IMG/VR virus record: IMGVR_UViG_2623620501_000013
From: a virus
Taxonomy: Duplodnaviria > Heunggongvirae > Uroviricota > Caudoviricetes
Strand: one strand, 5' to 3'
Length of the DNA: 32,923 bases
The notes beneath the pieces were generated by a model, which had not been told where the DNA came from, ran no database searches, and saw nothing but the letters and a program-made list of their open reading frames with translations. This document shows, piece after piece, positions 4,441 through 26,463 of the stretch. A program made the translations under genes and the position numbers. The first letter of the stretch is position 1, and each line of letters starts with the position of its first letter.

Positions 4441-5773
4441 TAATTACCACCCCGGCGGTTATGTTGTTCGGGTCACGTAACTGCGGGTTCAGGCGTTGCA
4501 GTTCTGCCGCACGACTGTAATCGCCGTACCACTGCCACGCCAGCAACAGCAGACAGCTGTCCGCCTGCACCTGTTTCTGCGTCAGCGGTGGGCGGCGTGA
4601 CAGAACCAGCAGGCCGACATCCTGCACGGTTGCCGCCACGTTTTTCATGCTCTGAATGATTTCCGGGTACATCAGCCCCAGCGGTGATGCGGTTTCGGTT
4701 ATCCGTTCGCGTTCGCCTTCATAGCGTTCACGGAACAGCGTGATGGCAGCCTGTAAGCGGGTGCGCACATCCCCGACCAGTCGCCCGATATCCGCCGGTA
4801 TAAGCTGTTCTGACTGCGCATCATCAACCAGTATCGCCATTGCAACACTGGCCAGTTCAGATGCGGCCTGTGTTGCGTAAACTGCTTTCACATCCTGCAC
4901 ATCGTCTGGCGAGGCATCCACAGGAAGTGCCACCTCCGCTACTTTATCGCCACTGACCAGGGTAACAGGCAACGCAACAAATTCATCCATATCAGTGATG
5001 ACCTTATTCCAGCAGTTCATCACTGTCGCAGAACTGGCGACGGTCGTCTCTCCTGCCAACCCGGTCCGGGTGGCAGAATCAACACGTTGCAGAACCTGCA
5101 CCGGTTGCCCGACATCTGATGTGTGGATTTCCAGCACCTCTGCCAGTTCATTGATAAATTTTCCGGGTTCGCCTGCCAGTGACACGATATTATCGACAGT
5201 GGAGACAAAATCACTTTTGAACGACAGCAGGGTATTCACCAGTGTGGCACGCACTGTCTGGGCTTTTTTAATCATGCTGTTAACGGTATTTAAAGGTGCA
5301 GTAACGGCATCAAAAAAATCACTTAACCGCGCCTGTAAAGTGTCCAGTTCATCAAACAACTGTTGCGCGAACAGCTCCGGTAACGGGGTGCTGAACAACG
5401 CGCTACCGGTGCGGTTTTCCAGAAAACTCATGTCAATGGTGCAGCTGTCCGGGCTTTCTGCGTCATGGCGGATGCTGTAGCCGGTCACAATCACCGACGG
5501 CACAGAGCCATAAACCGGATGAATCAGTTCACCATCGCCGCCTTCATCCAGGGCGGCGGTCAGTTTCCCGAGTTTATATTCATAGTCATCGCCCCACAGG
5601 AACGCCGTCATGCGGAACGGTCGCGCCTTGCGTCCGAGGTCGTGCAAATCCGCCCCGTCAACAAACGGGTATTCATAGACCGCATGGTCGCGGCTGATTT
5701 GTTCGTCAGTATTCAGCACCTCAAACTGCACGCCACGAAAGGAAGCGTTTTGCAGGTTTTCAGCCCAGCCCAT
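4424..5773 (-). CDS. DNA circulation protein N-like (Mu gp43)
   Basis: 449 aa immediately downstream of the tape measure gene (ATGA-type overlap at 5773); synteny with Mu N. Confidence 0.55.
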   Translation of the reverse strand: MGWAENLQNASFRGVQFEVLNTDEQISRDHAVYEYPFVDGADLHDLGRKARPFRMTAFLWGDDYEYKLGKLTAALDEGGDGELIHPVYGSVPSVIVTGYSIRHDAESPDSCTIDMSFLENRTGSALFSTPLPELFAQQLFDELDTLQARLSDFFDAVTAPLNTVNSMIKKAQTVRATLVNTLLSFKSDFVSTVDNIVSLAGEPGKFINELAEVLEIHTSDVGQPVQVLQRVDSATRTGLAGETTVASSATVMNCWNKVITDMDEFVALPVTLVSGDKVAEVALPVDASPDDVQDVKAVYATQAASELASVAMAILVDDAQSEQLIPADIGRLVGDVRTRLQAAITLFRERYEGERERITETASPLGLMYPEIIQSMKNVAATVQDVGLLVLSRRPPLTQKQVQADSCLLLLAWQWYGDYSRAAELQRLNPQLRDPNNITAGVVINAYAK

Positions 5774-8046
5774 CAGTAAGTTCCTCCCGTACCTCTGTTA
5801 CCGTCCTGAAGGTTGTATTTGTTCACTGCCTCCGCCACGACCTGACCATCGAGCACCAGTTGTGTGGTGAAATTAATGGGGCTGGCAGGTGGCCCCCAGT
5901 GCGTGAGGTATTCCGGCTGGGTGATGCGTCCGGGTTGAGTTGATGCCGGTTCAGGCTTTGTGTTTCCTGCGGCTTTGTTAACCTGCGCCGGTGATGGCAG
6001 GGCATCAGCTGCGGCTTTTTTCCTGTCTTCCTCCCAGCGCCTCAACCATTCTTCGTTTTCGGTGGAATAGCCTTCCCCAAACTGCCACCATGGCTGGTAT
6101 TTTTTGCGGGCGGCGTCGATTTCTTCCTGGGTGTATCGGGCGCGGATGCGTTTCCAGCGTTCTTCGCTTCCTTCGACGGCGGCGTCTTCCTCCGGGCTGG
6201 TTGCGGTGGCCAGTGCCGTAACAGTGCCACCTAAAGAAAGCAGGCCACCGGCAATACCGGGGAATTTAAATCCTTTGCCTTTTTTGACCGTGTTTTCAAT
6301 TACATCACCAACAACCTCGCCAGTCTTGCCACCGGGTTTACCCCCGGTCAGGATTTTGATCCCGGCCCATGTCAGAGCCGCTGCGGTCATCGCTTCAATC
6401 GCAGTTGTGGCACCCACCACCGCCGTGGTCAGCCCCGGAAACTTTTCACCCGCCCAGCTTATGGCATCGGCCACAGTACCGGACGCATCAGCCAGCTTTT
6501 TCATGCTGTCCATTTGTGAAAATTCAAGCGTGTTTTTAGCCTGTTCGGTTTTAAAATCATTGAGGCCGGATATGAATCTGAAATCAACATCCCCCGCGCG
6601 CTGGCCTTCCGGCAGGGTACGTTGCTGATTAATCGCGTCTTCAACCTTCTTACGGTATTCCGGGTTGTTACGGTAGGCTAACAACGCCATCAACGCCTGA
6701 CGGTCTGCAACCAGTTTCCCGACACCAAAGCCTTCAAGGAGTTTTGCCATCGAATCGTAAACAGCCGTCTGTTCACCTTTATCCCGGGCAGATGACAGTT
6801 TCTTTTGCAACTCCTGATAGCGTTTATCGCTGGCAACGATTTTATCTATCAGGCTGGAAAGCGCGTCTATCGGATCCAGCCCATGCTTGCGCGCTTCAGT
6901 CAGCGTACCTGAAAAATCAATCCCTTTACCGTTGTAATCAATGCTCTTTGCCGCAGTTTCAATATCATGGCTGGTCAGTTTAGCCAGCAGGTTAACCACG
7001 TTATTCCCTGCTTCATCACTGCTACCAGCCGTGATCGCGGCGGCTTCATTCAGCGCAAGAATCTTGACGAAATCATCCTTGCCTTTCATTCCCGCAGCTG
7101 ACGCAGATCCCATTTGTTGGGATAACCAGCGGGCCATATCGTTCAGTTCAAAGCTGCCTTCTTTTCCTGCCGCAATCGCCATATTCAGGACAGTGGAAAT
7201 ATCTTCATCCCGGAATCCAAAGGTCTTTTTGCCCTTAAGCATCACATTAGCCAGGTCTGTCGCTGATGCACCAGAAGCCGTGGCGTATTTCATCAGTTCA
7301 GGTAGCCACTTGCTGGCTGTGTCAAATGAAATACCGCCATCTTTCAGCAGGGCATCCAGTGTTTCGGCTGCATCCTCTTTTGTGCCGCCACCATAGGTCA
7401 CCGCGTTACGGATGCTGCTTTTCATCTGCTCAAGACCGGCTTTGCGCCCCTCCAGCCCGCCATCACTGAAGGCGGTATTGGCCATCATTGCCAGCTGGCG
7501 TTCGTAGCTCATCTGCTTTTTGACCGGCTGCGCCATAATGGCAGCACCTGCCGCGATACCACCACCTATTGTCACGGCATTCCCGCCAAATGCAGCCGCA
7601 CGCGCAAAACGCCCCCGTTCAGGGATAACAGGCGTTTTCGCCATCTTCATCTGAGCCTGAGTGACGCCATCCAGTTCACGCTTGAGTGCCCGGGCTTTTT
7701 CCCGGGTGGCCTGCATGGCGCGCTCCTGCTCCTGCGCAGATTCAAAACCGGCGCGGGCCAGACGGTTATAGCTGGCAACCGTCTGATAAATTTCACGCCG
7801 GATCTCGCGTTCTGCACGAATACCGAGCGTTTCCCGGGCACGGGCGGCACGCTGTATCTCTTTTGCCGCCTTTTTCGTGCTGTTAACGCTTTCCTGCCCG
7901 GTACGCGTCTGCTCTGCGCCTGCCTTCCGGGTTGCCTTTGTTACACCTTCGGTGGCTTTGATAACCTGTTTTTGTCCCTTTTCCAGAACCTGCGAGGCTT
8001 CGTCCTTCGCAGTCAGGGTCATGCCAACTTTGAAATTACCGGCCAT
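5773..8046 (-). CDS. Tail tape measure protein
   Basis: 757 aa, Ala/Gly/Lys-rich with long predicted helical regions; located between the tail chaperone and baseplate genes. Confidence 0.8.
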   Translation of the reverse strand: MAGNFKVGMTLTAKDEASQVLEKGQKQVIKATEGVTKATRKAGAEQTRTGQESVNSTKKAAKEIQRAARARETLGIRAEREIRREIYQTVASYNRLARAGFESAQEQERAMQATREKARALKRELDGVTQAQMKMAKTPVIPERGRFARAAAFGGNAVTIGGGIAAGAAIMAQPVKKQMSYERQLAMMANTAFSDGGLEGRKAGLEQMKSSIRNAVTYGGGTKEDAAETLDALLKDGGISFDTASKWLPELMKYATASGASATDLANVMLKGKKTFGFRDEDISTVLNMAIAAGKEGSFELNDMARWLSQQMGSASAAGMKGKDDFVKILALNEAAAITAGSSDEAGNNVVNLLAKLTSHDIETAAKSIDYNGKGIDFSGTLTEARKHGLDPIDALSSLIDKIVASDKRYQELQKKLSSARDKGEQTAVYDSMAKLLEGFGVGKLVADRQALMALLAYRNNPEYRKKVEDAINQQRTLPEGQRAGDVDFRFISGLNDFKTEQAKNTLEFSQMDSMKKLADASGTVADAISWAGEKFPGLTTAVVGATTAIEAMTAAALTWAGIKILTGGKPGGKTGEVVGDVIENTVKKGKGFKFPGIAGGLLSLGGTVTALATATSPEEDAAVEGSEERWKRIRARYTQEEIDAARKKYQPWWQFGEGYSTENEEWLRRWEEDRKKAAADALPSPAQVNKAAGNTKPEPASTQPGRITQPEYLTHWGPPASPINFTTQLVLDGQVVAEAVNKYNLQDGNRGTGGTY

Positions 8047-8208
8047 TTTTCTGTTTACCTTTTCTGCGTTTCTTTCTGAGGGATTTAAATGACTGGCGGG
8101 TGGTCTGTGAGGTGTCCTTTCTTCCTGAGCCGCCGCCGTTCAGCCTGTCAACGGCGGCAAGCCAGCCGTCCAGCTCGGGACGGCTCATGGTCATGATTTG
8201 TTCTTCGG

Positions 8209-8592
8209 TTATTCCGTAGCGCCCGAGGATAAGGACTGCGAGCCGGAGTCCGGCGAGCCGGGATTCCCGCCGCTCCGCTTTACCTTCAGGACGTTGCGTG
8301 ATGCCAGCAGAATATTAAAATCTTCCGGCGTCATGTTGTCGTGCAACAGCTCCGCCGTCAGTTCTTCCTGCGGAATATCCCCCAGACGGACCAGCGTTGC
8401 CGCCATTACCGCACAGCGGTAGTAATAATCCGCCGCGAAGCCGTCCACTGTCTGAAAGCGTTCTTCAGTTTCTTCCAGTGCCTGCCCGTTATCACGCATG
8501 ACCGGCAGACGCAGCTCAAAGTTTTTATGAATGGTGCCGTTAAAAACCAGACCATCGGACAGTTCGCCGGTCTGTGTAGCGATAATCGTCAT
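8209..8592 (-). CDS. Tail assembly chaperone (Mu gp41 position)
   Basis: 127 aa between the tube and tape measure genes. The -1 frame stays open from 8314 to the tape measure start, which would allow a frameshift-extended product. Confidence 0.5.
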   Translation of the reverse strand: MTIIATQTGELSDGLVFNGTIHKNFELRLPVMRDNGQALEETEERFQTVDGFAADYYYRCAVMAATLVRLGDIPQEELTAELLHDNMTPEDFNILLASRNVLKVKRSGGNPGSPDSGSQSLSSGATE

Positions 8593-8963
8593 CCTTCCAC
8601 CTTCCTGAGTGCAGCCATTTTGATATCAATTTTCGCTTCATTATCGACGGTGTATTTCTCACCCACTTCGGTTGTGAAGCAGTCCAGATAAGAGGTGCGT
8701 TTACCGCTGTTACTGAGCGGGTACAGCGAGATTTTCACACCTTCCAGATTTTCCCAGTCCGGCTCGTTGGTATCAGGAATAACCGCCGAAACGGACAGTT
8801 CGTAGGTGGCAATGCCACGGGCAAAGCCTTTAGCCCTGCCGGTTTTGTTCATGGTCTTGACCAGCTTTCGCCCGGTGTTGATCTGAACATCAAGGTCGGT
8901 GATCTCGATTTCCTGGCTGTCAATTTCCAACACAATCGAGCCGATATATTCTTTCAGGGACAT
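8589..8963 (-). CDS. Tail tube protein (Mu M-like)
   Basis: 124 aa directly downstream of the sheath gene with a 4-nt overlap onto the chaperone gene. Confidence 0.65.
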   Translation of the reverse strand: MSLKEYIGSIVLEIDSQEIEITDLDVQINTGRKLVKTMNKTGRAKGFARGIATYELSVSAVIPDTNEPDWENLEGVKISLYPLSNSGKRTSYLDCFTTEVGEKYTVDNEAKIDIKMAALRKVEG

Positions 8964-22995: not shown

Positions 22996-23463
22996 TTAAT
23001 CAAAAAGCCCCACCTGGGTGGGGCTTTTCAGCGAAGTCTGTTTTTGTCGTCGGTGTATCAGTTGCCATGCGTACCGGTCTGAAATGCCGTAACGGGGACA
23101 GAGCAGTGCCAGCGCCTGCCGGTGTGAGCATCCGCCTTTTACATGCTGCTGTAAATCAGCCATAAAACGGGTGTTACGCAGGGCACGTAACGCATGATCG
23201 CAACGGGGAATGTAAAACGGTGCGCCGCCAAGAAAACGGATCAGTTTGTTGATTTCGTCTTCGGTCAGCACGTCATGTAACAGGGCATGGACACCGCCGG
23301 TGCGTTCGGCGTGTACGCCGGTTTTACCGCTTAACGTCACGCCACCAAAAGAACGAATCAACCGGGTCAGGGCGGGGAAGCCAATCACGCTAATCAGTTG
23401 CTGCACGGAATCGGGCAGCAGTGCCTGCGCATCGCGAAGATCTGTTTCACTGAAGGTCTGCAT
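22996..23463 (-). CDS. Mor/C-family transcriptional activator
   Basis: 155 aa with a C-terminal helix-turn-helix-like segment (...RYGISDRYAWQLIHRR...); position between gemA-like and lysis genes as in Mu. Confidence 0.65.
   Translation of the reverse strand: MQTFSETDLRDAQALLPDSVQQLISVIGFPALTRLIRSFGGVTLSGKTGVHAERTGGVHALLHDVLTEDEINKLIRFLGGAPFYIPRCDHALRALRNTRFMADLQQHVKGGCSHRQALALLCPRYGISDRYAWQLIHRRQKQTSLKSPTQVGLFD
23003..23028 (-). terminator. Intrinsic terminator overlapping the 3' end of the Mor/C-like gene
   Basis: Near-perfect palindrome AAAAGCCCCACC-TG-GGTGGGGCTTTT; on the minus-strand RNA the stem is followed by UUUUUGAUUAAUG. Confidence 0.6.
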
Positions 23464-23492
23464 GATGGCGTCTCCGGTAGTAACTTACTGTT

Positions 23493-23520
23493 ATTATAGC
23501 CATACATGATCGCCTGTACA
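23493..23520 (-). promoter_or_regulatory. Sigma70-like promoter candidate for the Mor/C-like gene
   Basis: Minus-strand TGTACA (23520-23515), 16-bp spacer, TATAAT (23498-23493), then GGAGA 8 nt before the ATG at 23463. Confidence 0.4.
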
Positions 23521-23529
23521 GACCATAAA

Positions 23530-23556
23530 AAACCTCCGCGTTTGCGAAGGTTTTTG
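23530..23556 (-). terminator. Intrinsic terminator after the secreted-protein moron
   Basis: On the minus-strand RNA: CCUUCGC-AAAC-GCGGAGG (7-bp stem with one G-U pair) followed by UUUUUUAUGG. Confidence 0.5.
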
Positions 23557-23562
23557 TTCATA

Positions 23563-23901
23563 TTATTTTTTATTCTCGTTTATCAACACCAGGTATCCTC
23601 TGACATACTCCCATACTTTCTGGTTATCTGTTGGATGCACTTTTCGACAATCTATGGCTTCATTTCCATAATCGCCAATGTCAGCTTGGGCTTGTGTTAA
23701 GAGAATAACCTTCCTGAGAGCGCATCCTCTGATGGTATCCTTTGAAATATCATCCCAGCCATTCATGTATGAATAAGCCAGATTACGTTGTGCCTGATAA
23801 TCGCCCTGTAATGTTTTTTTGACCAAATCTTCCTCTGAATCAGAAGCATGGGATATCCCTGTAAAACATAAAGTCAGAATAAGTAATAACAGTTTTTTCA
23901 T
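23563..23901 (-). CDS. Small secreted protein with cleavable signal peptide (moron)
   Basis: 112 aa starting MKKLLLLILTLCFTGISHA; AT-rich relative to flanking genes; own terminator. Confidence 0.55.
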   Translation of the reverse strand: MKKLLLLILTLCFTGISHASDSEEDLVKKTLQGDYQAQRNLAYSYMNGWDDISKDTIRGCALRKVILLTQAQADIGDYGNEAIDCRKVHPTDNQKVWEYVRGYLVLINENKK

Positions 23902-24293
23902 TTACGTTTCCTTGAATCTTTAACCAGCGCCACCATCACTCCAAAAAGCTGTTCATCCGTCAGCCATTCGATCACATGTTGCTTATACATGTGAGATGCC
24001 AGTCCTTCTGCATACTCCCAGGAACGACCGGCATCAGCCAGCAACGCTTCAATTTTGGATAATACTGATTTTCTGCTCATTGCAACACGAGGGCGGCGAC
24101 CTTTACCAGCGGGTGCCTTGCGCGGGAATCCCTGTTCGTGCATGTATTCCCGGATGATGCGCAGTTCATCGAGATTGCAGCGTGTGGTGCTGGTTTTACC
24201 GGTCAGGCGGGCCAGCGTCTGGCGATAAAGGGCATCATCCCACCCCAGATACGCCTGACCAGCTTTAATGGCCCCGATCATCTTTTTCAGCAT
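23898..24293 (-). CDS. GemA-like protein (Mu gp16 family)
   Basis: Probable start at ATG 24293 (MLKKMIGAIKAGQAYLGWDD...) with GAGG 12 nt upstream; the ORF is open from 24392. Confidence 0.5.
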   Translation of the reverse strand: MLKKMIGAIKAGQAYLGWDDALYRQTLARLTGKTSTTRCNLDELRIIREYMHEQGFPRKAPAGKGRRPRVAMSRKSVLSKIEALLADAGRSWEYAEGLASHMYKQHVIEWLTDEQLFGVMVALVKDSRKRK

Positions 24294-24543
24294 GTTTGTT
24301 ATCCTCAAAACGCACGGTAAAACGTGAAACGCCAATCCCTGACAAGAACGCAGCGGCACGGTCAAGAGACAACCACGTCTTGTAATCGCCACGGCGTTCC
24401 TGTAGAAAATAGGACACCCCGGCGCGGCGATTCACAGCGAAGAGATGATACACACCACCGAACCGCTGCACGACGAACTCATCCACGCCACCGCTTTCAG
24501 CCTGTTGCCGAAAGGCTGCCATTCCGATTTGTTCAATCTTCAT
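24265..24543 (-). CDS. Hypothetical protein
   Basis: ORF open from 24552 (TTG); first ATG at 24543 (MKIEQIG...). Confidence 0.4.
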   Translation of the reverse strand: MKIEQIGMAAFRQQAESGGVDEFVVQRFGGVYHLFAVNRRAGVSYFLQERRGDYKTWLSLDRAAAFLSGIGVSRFTVRFEDNKHAEKDDRGH

Positions 24544-24697
24544 AATGACCAAAACACTACTTTTGGCAGACCAAAAAACATGTTTTGGCCTGCATTTGAT
24601 TACTGTTTAAACAACTCGCGAAATCAGGAACGTCGAGTTTCGGTGATGGCTTTCATCGTGTTGTTGCTCCGTGATTCAGAAAATTTCATGCCGGGCC

Positions 24698-25108
24698 TCA
24701 GTATGTGAAATAGACAGTTGCCACGCCGTTATAGTGATCAAACGACACGGCGTTTACCTCATAACTGGCCGGTAGCTTCGAGCCAAGAACGTATCCGGGC
24801 CACGTTTTCCATGGAATTTCTCTGCTCTCACTGTCGCCATATACCGTACATCCCAGTGAGCCTACAGCTTCATAAGAACGCTTACCGCACGTTATGAACC
24901 CCAGATGTTGCTTACTGCCCTTAACAGAAATCGGGAGAGCACTGGCTGATGCGTTAGCAGCGTCCCGCTCCTGTTGGCTTGCGATATTCGCAGAGTTTGC
25001 AGCAGCTACAGCAGCCGTGGTCGCAGCGGCAGATGCCACAATAACTGCTGAAGCCTGCGTATGTTGGGTAATGGTTAGCAATGCCGCCACAAAAATCATT
25101 TTCTTCAC
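24698..25108 (-). CDS. Secreted Ala-rich protein with signal peptide
   Basis: GTG start at 25108 with AGGAGG 6 nt upstream; N-terminal signal-like MKKMIFVAALLTITQHTQA, Ala-rich linker, Cys-containing C-terminal domain ending YFTY. Confidence 0.5.
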   Translation of the reverse strand: MKKMIFVAALLTITQHTQASAVIVASAAATTAAVAAANSANIASQQERDAANASASALPISVKGSKQHLGFITCGKRSYEAVGSLGCTVYGDSESREIPWKTWPGYVLGSKLPASYEVNAVSFDHYNGVATVYFTY

Positions 25109-25120
25109 CTGGCACCTCCT

Positions 25121-25303
25121 TTACATACCGTGATTTTTCCAGCGGTTTTGGGCTGCGCTTCTGTTTCGCCAGACACCGTAAAAACGAATAGAGGACCACT
25201 CCCTAAAACCAAGATATCTATAGCGAACAACAAGCCGATTTGAGATACGGATAAGTTGCCCCGGCTTTGCTATCAGCAGTCTTGCCTTACGGTTTTTCAT
25301 CAT
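25121..25303 (-). CDS. Small basic hypothetical protein
   Basis: 60 aa; its ATG overlaps the stop of the upstream 57-aa ORF (ATGA); AGGAGAG just upstream. Confidence 0.3.
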   Translation of the reverse strand: MMKNRKARLLIAKPGQLIRISNRLVVRYRYLGFREWSSIRFYGVWRNRSAAQNRWKNHGM

Positions 25304-25473
25304 TTTGCTCTCCTGCGTTTCTTTGCTTCGCGTCGTGCAGCTGCAATACCGGTATGGCGGCGCTTTTGTGCCGGGATGATGTTGTCAGCCATCAGGACAT
25401 GTGGCTTTGCAATTAGCGCAGAAGCCCAAAAACGAGTCGGGTACGGTAACAAGCCGATACATGCCACACGCAT
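25300..25473 (-). CDS. Small basic hypothetical protein (57 aa, below the ORF-track cutoff)
   Basis: Translated by hand as MRVACIG...AAARREAKKRRRAK; TAATG overlap with the upstream gene stop and AAGGAGG upstream. Confidence 0.3.
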   Translation of the reverse strand: MRVACIGLLPYPTRFWASALIAKPHVLMADNIIPAQKRRHTGIAAARREAKKRRRAK

Positions 25474-26102
25474 TACTCACCTCCTTTGATGCGAATGCCA
25501 GCGGCGCGTGGCACATTAACTTCCACGATTCGTACTGTTGGTTTGTACATCTCAATCGCTGTCAGCCAGTCAGCTCCTGTCATGCGCTTTTCCGCATCGC
25601 CATTAGTCCACTGAACTGGTACACCAATAGCCTTCATCGCGATTTCTATTTCCCCGGCAATGGCGCTTTTTCCGCAACCAGTAAAACCAGAAACAACGAC
25701 AAGAACTTCGCCTTTGGCTGGTTTTATTTCCCGTGCTTCCAGTTCTGCTATGCGCTTCTCTGCGGCTTCCAGCTTGGCTTCTGCATCTTTGGCTCGCATC
25801 TGCCAGTTGATAGCGATGTCGATAACGCTGTTAGCACAACTGGACTCATTCTCTTCGGCAGCTTTAGCTTCAGAAAGCTCATCAAGCAGTCCAAGAACAA
25901 CAGTTGGCGTGGCGAGCGTGATAAAACGCATATTGCTCATATGCTCTTCATCGCTAACATCATCGCCAGCCTCGACCGCTGCCATGTGCTGAACATAGCC
26001 GCTATCACAGGTATTCCAGATTGCCCCTGCCTCGTGCCCCCATTCACCATGTAGCGCTTTTTCTGCCGCCTCACGCAGTGCCTGATAGTTAATTTTGCTC
26101 AC
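25473..26102 (-). CDS. Ea22-like protein with a C-terminal Walker A (P-loop) motif
   Basis: Probable GTG start at 26102 preceded by AGGAGG. N-terminal SKINYQALREAAEKAL... resembles ead/Ea22-like proteins as I recall; coiled-coil middle; C-terminal VLVVVSGFTGCGKS. Confidence 0.5.
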   Translation of the reverse strand: MSKINYQALREAAEKALHGEWGHEAGAIWNTCDSGYVQHMAAVEAGDDVSDEEHMSNMRFITLATPTVVLGLLDELSEAKAAEENESSCANSVIDIAINWQMRAKDAEAKLEAAEKRIAELEAREIKPAKGEVLVVVSGFTGCGKSAIAGEIEIAMKAIGVPVQWTNGDAEKRMTGADWLTAIEMYKPTVRIVEVNVPRAAGIRIKGGE

Positions 26103-26463
26103 GGGTTGCCTCCTGTTCATTTCCCTTGTTCAGTTTTCGTCTGCATACAGCGCAATCATCGGGGCTTTCGAAGCTGTCTGGTTCGCGTTCACCAGAGTAC
26201 ATCCATCTGCGGCAGATACTGGTTACTTCATTCTCGGCAAAATAATGATATTTTTTCGACCTGGCTGGTCTGCCCCATCCAGCTGTTCTCTCGCTCACAT
26301 CACGTTTTAATCCCCCCGCGCGGACCTCCTTTAGCTCCAGAAGGGCCAGCCTCAGAAGCGTCCACCACTCACTGTCTGCAACCGGCTCCATATCAAGCGC
26401 TCTGTCAGCATCAGCAATCAGTCTGGTCAGGCTCTTATCGCTTATTCTGGTTTGCTGGCTCAC
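26089..26463 (-). CDS. Hypothetical protein with zinc-ribbon-like Cys motif
   Basis: Probable GTG start at 26463 preceded by AGGAGG; C-terminal ...SICRRW...DDCAVCRRK...; the ORF is open from 26502. Confidence 0.45.
   Translation of the reverse strand: MSQQTRISDKSLTRLIADADRALDMEPVADSEWWTLLRLALLELKEVRAGGLKRDVSERTAGWGRPARSKKYHYFAENEVTSICRRWMYSGEREPDSFESPDDCAVCRRKLNKGNEQEATREQN

Follow-up and report, generated by a model that had tools for sequence, protein, structure and literature searches.

The gene and its neighbors at the locus

The window, by which we mean the whole 32,923-nt stretch of DNA analyzed here, is a Mu-like prophage; six complete Escherichia coli chromosomes, all from chicken or chicken meat, contain prophages with 100% identity to it. 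According to the RefSeq annotation of one prophage, the gene order runs from Mu transposase, a MuB-like ATPase, DUF3164, DUF2786, DUF4752, and an Ead/Ea22-like gene through two small open reading frames (ORFs), the 136-amino-acid (aa) gene that is the subject of this report, a 92-aa ORF, gp16/GemA, a Sel1-like ORF, and Mor to the holins, a GH108 endolysin, and the terminase. The early operon runs for ~8 kb before it reaches the 136-aa gene, which sits between MuA/MuB and GemA/Mor in the semi-essential accessory part of the early region. Identical copies of it are present in the same six E. coli chromosomes, and it occupies the same slot in nine further Mu-like loci from IMG/VR and in four related E. 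coli prophages.

The gene is on the minus strand at positions 24698 to 25108, with its GTG start codon at 25108-25106 and its TGA stop codon at 24700-24698. It belongs to the phrog_8805 family, and its product is the RefSeq hypothetical protein WP_029392800.1. The initial annotation had reported a GTG start with a strong AGGAGG site, and we confirmed both: the Shine-Dalgarno sequence, read directly from the same strand, lies at 25120-25115, with a spacing of 6 nt to the GTG. The GTG start is kept in the Mu-like, P1-like, Av-05, and KW1E_UTAR copies of the gene. The 60-aa ORF directly upstream has its stop at 25121, leaving 12 nt between the two genes, which indicates that the 136-aa gene is tightly packed in its operon. 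Its full product reads, in order, MKKMIFVAALLTITQHTQA, SAVIVASAAATTAAVAAANSANIASQQERDAANASASA, and LPISVKGSKQHLGFITCGKRSYEAVGSLGCTVYGDSESREIPWKTWPGYVLGSKLPASYEVNAVSFDHYNGVATVYFTY, with VATVYFTY at the C-terminal end.

When the gene was compared pairwise with the copies in other prophages, P1-like plasmids, and phage Av-05, dN/dS was 0.07 to 0.30 for the C-terminal domain and 0.14 to 0.8 for the Ala-rich part, in which one pair reached 1.28. The protein matched the phrog_8805 HMM with an E value of 1.5e-81, residues 1 to 136 aligning with profile positions 1 to 136 of 136. The low dN/dS of the C-domain, this full-length match, and the existence of ~100 homologous clusters, described below, place the gene beyond chance: it is real and under purifying selection, which is strongest on the C-domain.

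The two small ORFs upstream, also on the minus strand, encode 60 aa (25121-25303; phrog_1380) and 57 aa (25300-25473; phrog_13831). Their DNA is 90 to 94% identical to that of very different phages (phiV10, TL-2011b/c, RCS47, and Stx2c phages), and in Av-05 and P1-like plasmids, homologues of the 60-aa ORF lie no more than ~1.5 kb from the family gene.

On the other side, between GemA and Mor, a 112-aa ORF (23563-23901, minus strand) encodes a protein that clearly has a signal peptide (MKKLLLLILTLCFTGISHA) and weakly matches a Sel1 repeat (phrog_5882). It is presumably the "first" secreted protein, the initial annotation having called the 136-aa product the second. Its GC content, ~0.40 against ~0.52 around it, is a classic moron signature, and only a subset of the related prophages has it, a different 158-aa ORF taking its place in the others. 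The GC content of the 136-aa gene is ~0.50, like that of its neighbors and unlike that of the low-GC Sel1-like ORF. A consensus scan of positions 23400 to 26200 found no promoter-like site upstream of the 136-aa gene on its strand and no terminator-like site on the coding strand. The only sigma-70-like match on the coding strand in this interval (TGTACA-16-TATAAT, 10 of 12 positions; 23493-23520, minus strand) is just upstream of the Mor gene (start at 23463), after the low-GC Sel1-like insert.

Palindromes in the downstream spacer

The intergenic spacer that follows the gene had been described as a 146-bp segment (24553-24697) containing CCAAAA/TTTTGG inverted repeats. The repeats are present, but the spacer is longer, 154 nt on the minus strand (24544-24697), extending as far as the next gene, whose ATG is annotated at 24543. 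Within it are two tandem palindromes of 18 bp each, CCAAAA-N6-TTTTGG on both strands, at 24549-24566 and 24571-24588, 22 bp apart. Two such palindromes were found against 0.01 expected by chance, and they are unique in the window. The pair stops 5 nt short of the ATG (24543) that starts the 92-aa ORF (24265-24543, minus strand), and related prophages keep it. An 83-aa membrane-protein gene has been inserted immediately after the secreted-protein gene in strains 20KM0223N and AH19B041, and there the palindromes are still directly upstream of the 92-aa ORF. Because they adjoin that ORF even when a gene has been inserted, we assign them to it and reject the possibility that they form a terminator or RNA element of the secreted-protein gene. 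The predicted RNA fold of the spacer was not significant when compared with shuffled sequences (z = -1.15), which speaks against such an element, as does the lack of a terminator-like site on the coding strand. To us, the palindromes look like an operator or a translational control site of the 92-aa ORF.

The 92-aa ORF belongs to phrog_7844, has a weak ParC-like match (E = 0.003), and has no obvious Shine-Dalgarno sequence. The product of the inserted 83-aa gene (2218-2469 in locus L013 and 8511-8762 in locus L015) has a membrane anchor at its N terminus and a tail rich in Cys; at the insertion site, the window has only a 21-aa remnant ORF (24624-24689, minus strand). The spacer seems to be an insertion hot spot for small envelope-directed genes.

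A conserved predicted signal peptide

Residues 1 to 19 of the product (MKKMIFVAALLTITQHTQA; 25052-25108, minus strand) form a predicted Sec signal peptide with the n/h/c layout. In a rule-based reading, the three regions are MKK, MIFVAALLTIT, and QHTQA, the last followed by S, with a predicted signal peptidase I cut after Ala19: a positive n-region, a hydrophobic core of 10 or 11 residues, and a c-region that is polar and has small residues at -3 and -1. An alignment of 32 members that spans 33 to 92% identity shows no variation at Ala19, the -1 residue. A script found a signal peptide in 105 of the 112 sequences that carry the conserved C-domain motif, the other 7 being incomplete entries or entries with an odd N terminus. 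With one exception, the site chosen in these 105 members was of the small-x-A type, and it lay 17 to 24 residues from the start. The pairs at -3 and -1 were AxA (47 members), SxA (37), VxA (11), TxA (6), GxA (3), and SxS (1). The residues just after the predicted cut are usually hydrophobic and beta-branched, [AV]-[VI]-[IV], across clades.

The signal peptide proposed in the initial annotation is thus borne out in its layout, and its features are kept across the full-length family members. By these rules alone, the window protein has the makeup of a Sec-type signal peptidase I pre-protein, and, judged from its sequence, it is very probably exported to the periplasm via Sec. The mature protein predicted after cleavage at Ala19 would be 117 aa, with a computed mass of ~12.1 kDa.

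The Ala-rich segment and possible N-terminal anchoring

After the predicted cut comes a weakly hydrophobic, Ala/Thr/Ser-rich segment, residues 20 to 57 (24938-25051, minus strand), which by its composition appears to be a stalk or linker of variable length; 17 of its 38 residues are Ala, 6 Ser, 3 Val, 3 Asn, and 2 Thr. Across the family, the linker, taken from the predicted cut to GF[VI]TCG, is 21 to 56 aa long and contains 10 to 38% Ala. In-frame indels in the Ala/Thr tract account for forms of 133, 136, 137, and 142 aa, and in a clade of ~45-kb siphoviruses, the tract is absent and a short polar linker beginning VVITKPRDYTPE takes its place. Within the Mu-like/P1-like/Av-05 clade, Ser26, Ala36, Asn38, Ile42, and Asn52 are near-invariant. 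The description of the segment as an Ala-rich low-complexity linker therefore holds for its composition but overlooks that it is partly conserved in its clade, of varying length, and missing from the siphovirus clade. Given its near-invariant positions in one clade and its absence from another, the tract is a clade-specific, semi-constrained stalk, not pure filler, and it is dispensable for the core function.

The Kyte-Doolittle mean of the segment reaches 1.8 over 19 residues, so it could be a membrane segment, which would alter the topology of the protein. The alternative to a free periplasmic protein would be a membrane-anchored one, held in the inner membrane by the Ala-rich segment or by a signal anchor that is not cleaved or, for certain clades, attached to a membrane by lipid. 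The C-domain of such a protein would act at the membrane surface, and anchoring of this kind would alter the location of the protein and not necessarily its function. The hydrophobicity of residues 19 to 37 is compatible with this, as are the conserved hydrophobic residues just behind the predicted cut. The window protein itself does not contain the lipobox [LVI][ASTVI][GAS]C and has no Cys before residue 74. A lipobox-like L-S-A-C does occur within the signal peptide of an abundant P1-like clade, P0073 (~47% identical, 540 contigs; an example is at 6001-6405 of a P1-like phage-plasmid, L004); it stands five residues before the conserved small-x-Ala site. Judged by this motif, the P0073 clade may be a lipoprotein version, and the motif's presence in so large a clade suggests that membrane anchoring matters. 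In P0089, P0090, and P0118, however, the lipobox-like Cys is replaced by Ser, and the Ala/Thr tract is expanded, so the mode of N-terminal anchoring may be interchangeable. Also against a membrane anchor, a rough hand sum of Hessa-type insertion free energies was positive for AVIVASAAATTAAVAAA, and the siphovirus clade has a plain signal peptide and a polar linker only. We consider a membrane-anchored topology unlikely.

The same segment raises the question of lysis timing. SAR domains have a weakly hydrophobic, Ala/Ser/Thr-rich composition, which the tract resembles, and the protein might accordingly be read as a periplasmic sensor or antiholin-like regulator of lysis timing with a SAR-like N-terminal region, as in T4 RI. 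Like T4 RI-type SAR proteins and antiholins, it combines such a region with a small periplasmic domain and is encoded by an early phage gene, one also found in virulent phages. The segment following the first hydrophobic core is borderline hydrophobic by the Kyte-Doolittle value given above, and a full-length AlphaFold2 (AF2) model draws residues 5 to 55 as one long helix, albeit with low confidence. Unlike the T4 RI type, however, the phrog_8805 family has a conserved signal peptidase site ahead of the tract, and this invariant small-x-Ala site favors cleavage over an uncleaved anchor. Moreover, one clade dispenses with the tract, whose length varies elsewhere, and linkage to lysis genes is lacking: the holin/endolysin cassette of the window is ~2.2 kb downstream of the gene, beyond Mor, and such a cassette is never adjacent in any context. 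A role in lysis timing is thus highly improbable.

A C-terminal domain with a probable disulfide and an orphan fold

The conserved C-terminal domain, residues 58 to 136 (24701-24937, minus strand), has the order beta-beta-beta-beta-alpha-beta-beta in its AF2 model. Over ~75 aa it carries the signature GF[VI]TCG-x(7-9)-S[LT][GA]C...IPW..WPGY.LG..LP.SY.V..[VI]SFD.YN..AT[VI]YF.Y. Its two cysteines, Cys74 (24889-24887, minus strand) and Cys87 (24850-24848, minus strand), are invariant in the family alignments and flank a conserved loop. They are the sole cysteines of the window protein, which agrees with the initial description of a two-Cys C-terminal domain ending in YFTY.

We modeled the C-domain alone because fold searches with the full-length model returned coiled-coil artifacts from its low-confidence N-terminal helix. 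The resulting AF2 model had a pLDDT of 88 and a pTM of 0.75. It places Cys74 at the end of strand 1 and Cys87 in strand 3, an arrangement that fits a disulfide-closed hairpin, and a Cys74-Cys87 disulfide closing a 12-residue hairpin loop is likely. A Foldseek search of BFVD with this model returned a single match, the family's own member from phage KW1E_UTAR, and a profile search of PDB sequences was empty. As modeled, the fold is an orphan relative to the libraries searched.

We also considered whether the C-terminal YF.Y might be an outer-membrane-protein beta-signal or a PDZ ligand. We rejected both readings, as the last strand lies in a confidently folded sheet; they are also opposed by the C-terminal extensions YR, YW, YTEKK, and YTERRQ in several members.

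A family shared by temperate and virulent phages

An exhaustive phmmer search of 1.84 billion representatives gave 15 matches, one of which (P0068, the sole match of 990 aa) we rejected as a false positive that is repetitive and unrelated. When 5.8 billion clusters were searched with profiles, the family grew to ~100 clusters (at 90% identity), and wherever a cluster bears an organism name, that organism belongs to Enterobacterales (Escherichia, Salmonella, Shigella, Citrobacter, Cronobacter, and Rahnella). Except for three that seem to be overextended at the N terminus, all members are stand-alone proteins of 109 to 142 aa, and profile searches with either the full-length alignment or just the C-domain revealed neither remote homologues nor fusions to other domains. 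The window protein matched nothing in Pfam or NCBIfam and no structural, replication, or other annotated family. A literature search by accessions, PHROG identifier, and cluster name found no paper mentioning the family. Its membership was already on record, as phrog_8805 and as a RefSeq hypothetical protein, and one UniRef cluster of the family is named "Prophage exported protein." The PHROG entry is catalogued without an assigned function, Pfam model, or structure. By analogy, the window protein resembles the small exported accessory proteins of phages, though with an orphan fold.

All genomic contexts that we examined were those of phages. Besides Mu-like prophages, they comprise P1-like phage-plasmids, the virulent Vequintavirinae myovirus Av-05, which has a copy at 68% identity, and ~45-kb siphoviruses of E. 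coli and Klebsiella, in which the gene follows a DNA methyltransferase gene and lies between the small and large terminase genes. The P1-like group consists of 66 plasmids of 85 to 110 kb, all nonmobilizable; the P1-like markers are Icd, Ash, and Ref in one plasmid and hot, humD, and phd/doc in others. Variants with at least 80% DNA identity occur in 64 of 5,426 complete E. coli genomes, as 66 copies, 47 chromosomal and 19 on plasmids. The initial annotation had framed the distribution in terms of Mu-like prophages, and the family clearly extends beyond them.

We looked for a conserved partner gene across these contexts and found no neighbor common to all, which suggests that the gene is a portable single-gene accessory module. 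Its usual flanks are mosaic Ead/Ea22-like coiled-coil genes (phrog_368, phrog_614, and phrog_14548), with the 60-aa ORF (phrog_1380) nearby in variable order. Genes of the Ead/Ea22-like type lie at 25473-26120 (minus strand) in the window, at 6516-7004 and 7420-8205 in locus L014, and at 5420-5950 in locus L002. In P1-like plasmids, Av-05, and many IMG/VR loci, such genes (phrog_6026 as well as the three families just named) border the family gene on one side or on both, and in prophage L015 an Ead/Ea22-like gene overlaps the start of the family gene by 4 nt. The association may reflect recombination hitchhiking rather than a functional link.

The distribution also bears on whether the gene is a moron that benefits the lysogen, a periplasmic stress tolerance, biofilm, or virulence-type factor functionally like DUF1471 (BhsA/McbA/YhcN). 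DUF1471 occurs mainly in Enterobacterales, its proteins and those of the phrog_8805 family are both small and signal-peptide bearing, and the neighboring Sel1-like secreted ORF (23563-23901), with its low GC content, resembles a classic moron. At the sequence level, however, we reject DUF1471 membership: PF07338 matched none of the 32 family members at E <= 10, and when the family profile was compared by hhalign with an alignment of seven E. coli DUF1471 proteins (each verified against PF07338), the probability was 3.4% and only the signal peptides aligned. The modeled window domain also appears to differ in having four strands before its helix and a putative disulfide-closed hairpin that DUF1471 (YdgH_BhsA-like) proteins lack. 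Further, the GC content of the 136-aa gene is like that of the host, the gene lacks a promoter-like site of its own, and it is also carried by virulent phages, for which there is no lysogen to benefit. A lysogen-benefit moron is, in our judgment, distinctly unlikely.

A proposed envelope function during infection

The initial annotation had proposed an exported accessory factor rather than a virion or replication protein and had named homology to a known structural phage protein as evidence to the contrary. No such homology was found, and the gene lies outside the late and replication modules; the conserved features of its signal peptide, its early accessory location, and its occurrence in Ead/Ea22-type arrays all support the proposal. 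The lack of a promoter-like site of its own, together with its presence in virulent phages, makes lytic expression likelier than expression in the lysogen, and early lytic expression is likely overall. One consequence is that proteomics of the periplasm of uninduced lysogens, which had been suggested as a check, may detect nothing. The phage-only distribution, the virulent carriers, and the absence of a partner gene point in turn to an envelope-directed, infection-time function, which we hold to be somewhat more probable than the reverse.

Among proteins of known function, those that exclude superinfecting phages offer the closest parallel that we considered. They include T5 Llp and P1 Sim. 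Like the phrog_8805 proteins, the exclusion proteins Sp, Imm, SieA, Cor, Llp, and Sim are small, phage encoded, and stand-alone, are targeted to the envelope by an N-terminal signal, and have no partner gene, and they are likewise found in both virulent and temperate phages. Cor and Llp further share a lipobox-like motif with the P0073 clade. Neither sequence nor structure comparisons linked the window protein to any of these six proteins or to any other characterized protein, and, while llp and cor adjoin receptor-binding or tail fiber genes, the 136-aa gene does not. Its C-domain is highly conserved, with no arms-race-like diversification, and therefore says nothing specific about phage-phage conflict. 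Superinfection exclusion specifically, which is proposed by analogy, is thus possible but doubtful. The small phage envelope proteins that act in this way (T4 Sp and Imm, P22 SieA, and phi80/N15 Cor) have been reviewed (PMC11436027).

A different early function could be periplasmic counterdefense, that is, inhibition of a host enzyme (endonuclease I, a protease, or one of the lysozyme type) or of an envelope-located anti-phage system. The predicted export of the protein, the early position of its gene in accessory gene arrays, and its presence in virulent phages are consistent with this, and the conserved disulfide-closed loop could, by analogy with Ivy-type inhibitors, be an inhibitory loop. 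Gatekeeping systems against phages are known in the periplasm (PMC13128918). Yet the window protein showed no similarity to known inhibitor families and no match to PADLOC models at E <= 1, and its gene has no genomic link to a specific defense system. Counterdefense is accordingly quite improbable.

Our preferred, if tentative, explanation is an exported, disulfide-bonded periplasmic accessory protein that is made early in the lytic cycle and acts on a conserved envelope component. Transcription within the early operon would yield the product soon after infection or induction and not in the quiescent lysogen. The pre-protein would be exported by Sec and cut by signal peptidase I after Ala19, leaving a mature protein of 117 aa (~12 kDa) located in the periplasm. 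There its C-domain of ~75 aa would probably be locked by the Cys74-Cys87 disulfide, oxidized in that compartment, while the weakly hydrophobic Ala-rich segment at the N terminus would serve as a stalk of variable length or a loose membrane tether. The protein would act alone, with no dedicated partner gene, and the conserved aromatic and proline-rich face of the C-domain would bind an envelope component conserved in Enterobacterales. Most likely, the infected cell would thereby be shielded from superinfecting phages, or its envelope would be changed in another way that benefits the phage, in a manner that might be likened to that of T4 Sp and Imm, phi80 Cor, or P22 SieA.

Implications for the family

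A broader proposal, which we offer as speculative, is that the phrog_8805 proteins form a structurally orphan family of periplasmic effectors, with the window protein as its first recognized member, shared by unrelated temperate (Mu-like and P1-like) and virulent (Vequintavirinae and ~45-kb siphovirus) phages of Enterobacterales. By binding a conserved envelope component, their disulfide-locked domain may block the entry of competitors or rewire an envelope process, and interchangeable anchors (a plain signal peptide, an Ala-rich stalk, or a lipobox) may tune the site at which it acts.

At present the family is one of many sets of conserved hypothetical phage proteins, and its immediate value is modest. 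The early regions and accessory arrays of phages are a source of genes for exclusion, counterdefense, and host takeover, few of the known ones being periplasmic. That purifying selection maintains an exported stand-alone domain in phages of four unrelated types suggests a portable, general envelope function with a conserved host target. Identification of that target would add a phage-phage or phage-envelope mechanism, along with a new small fold.
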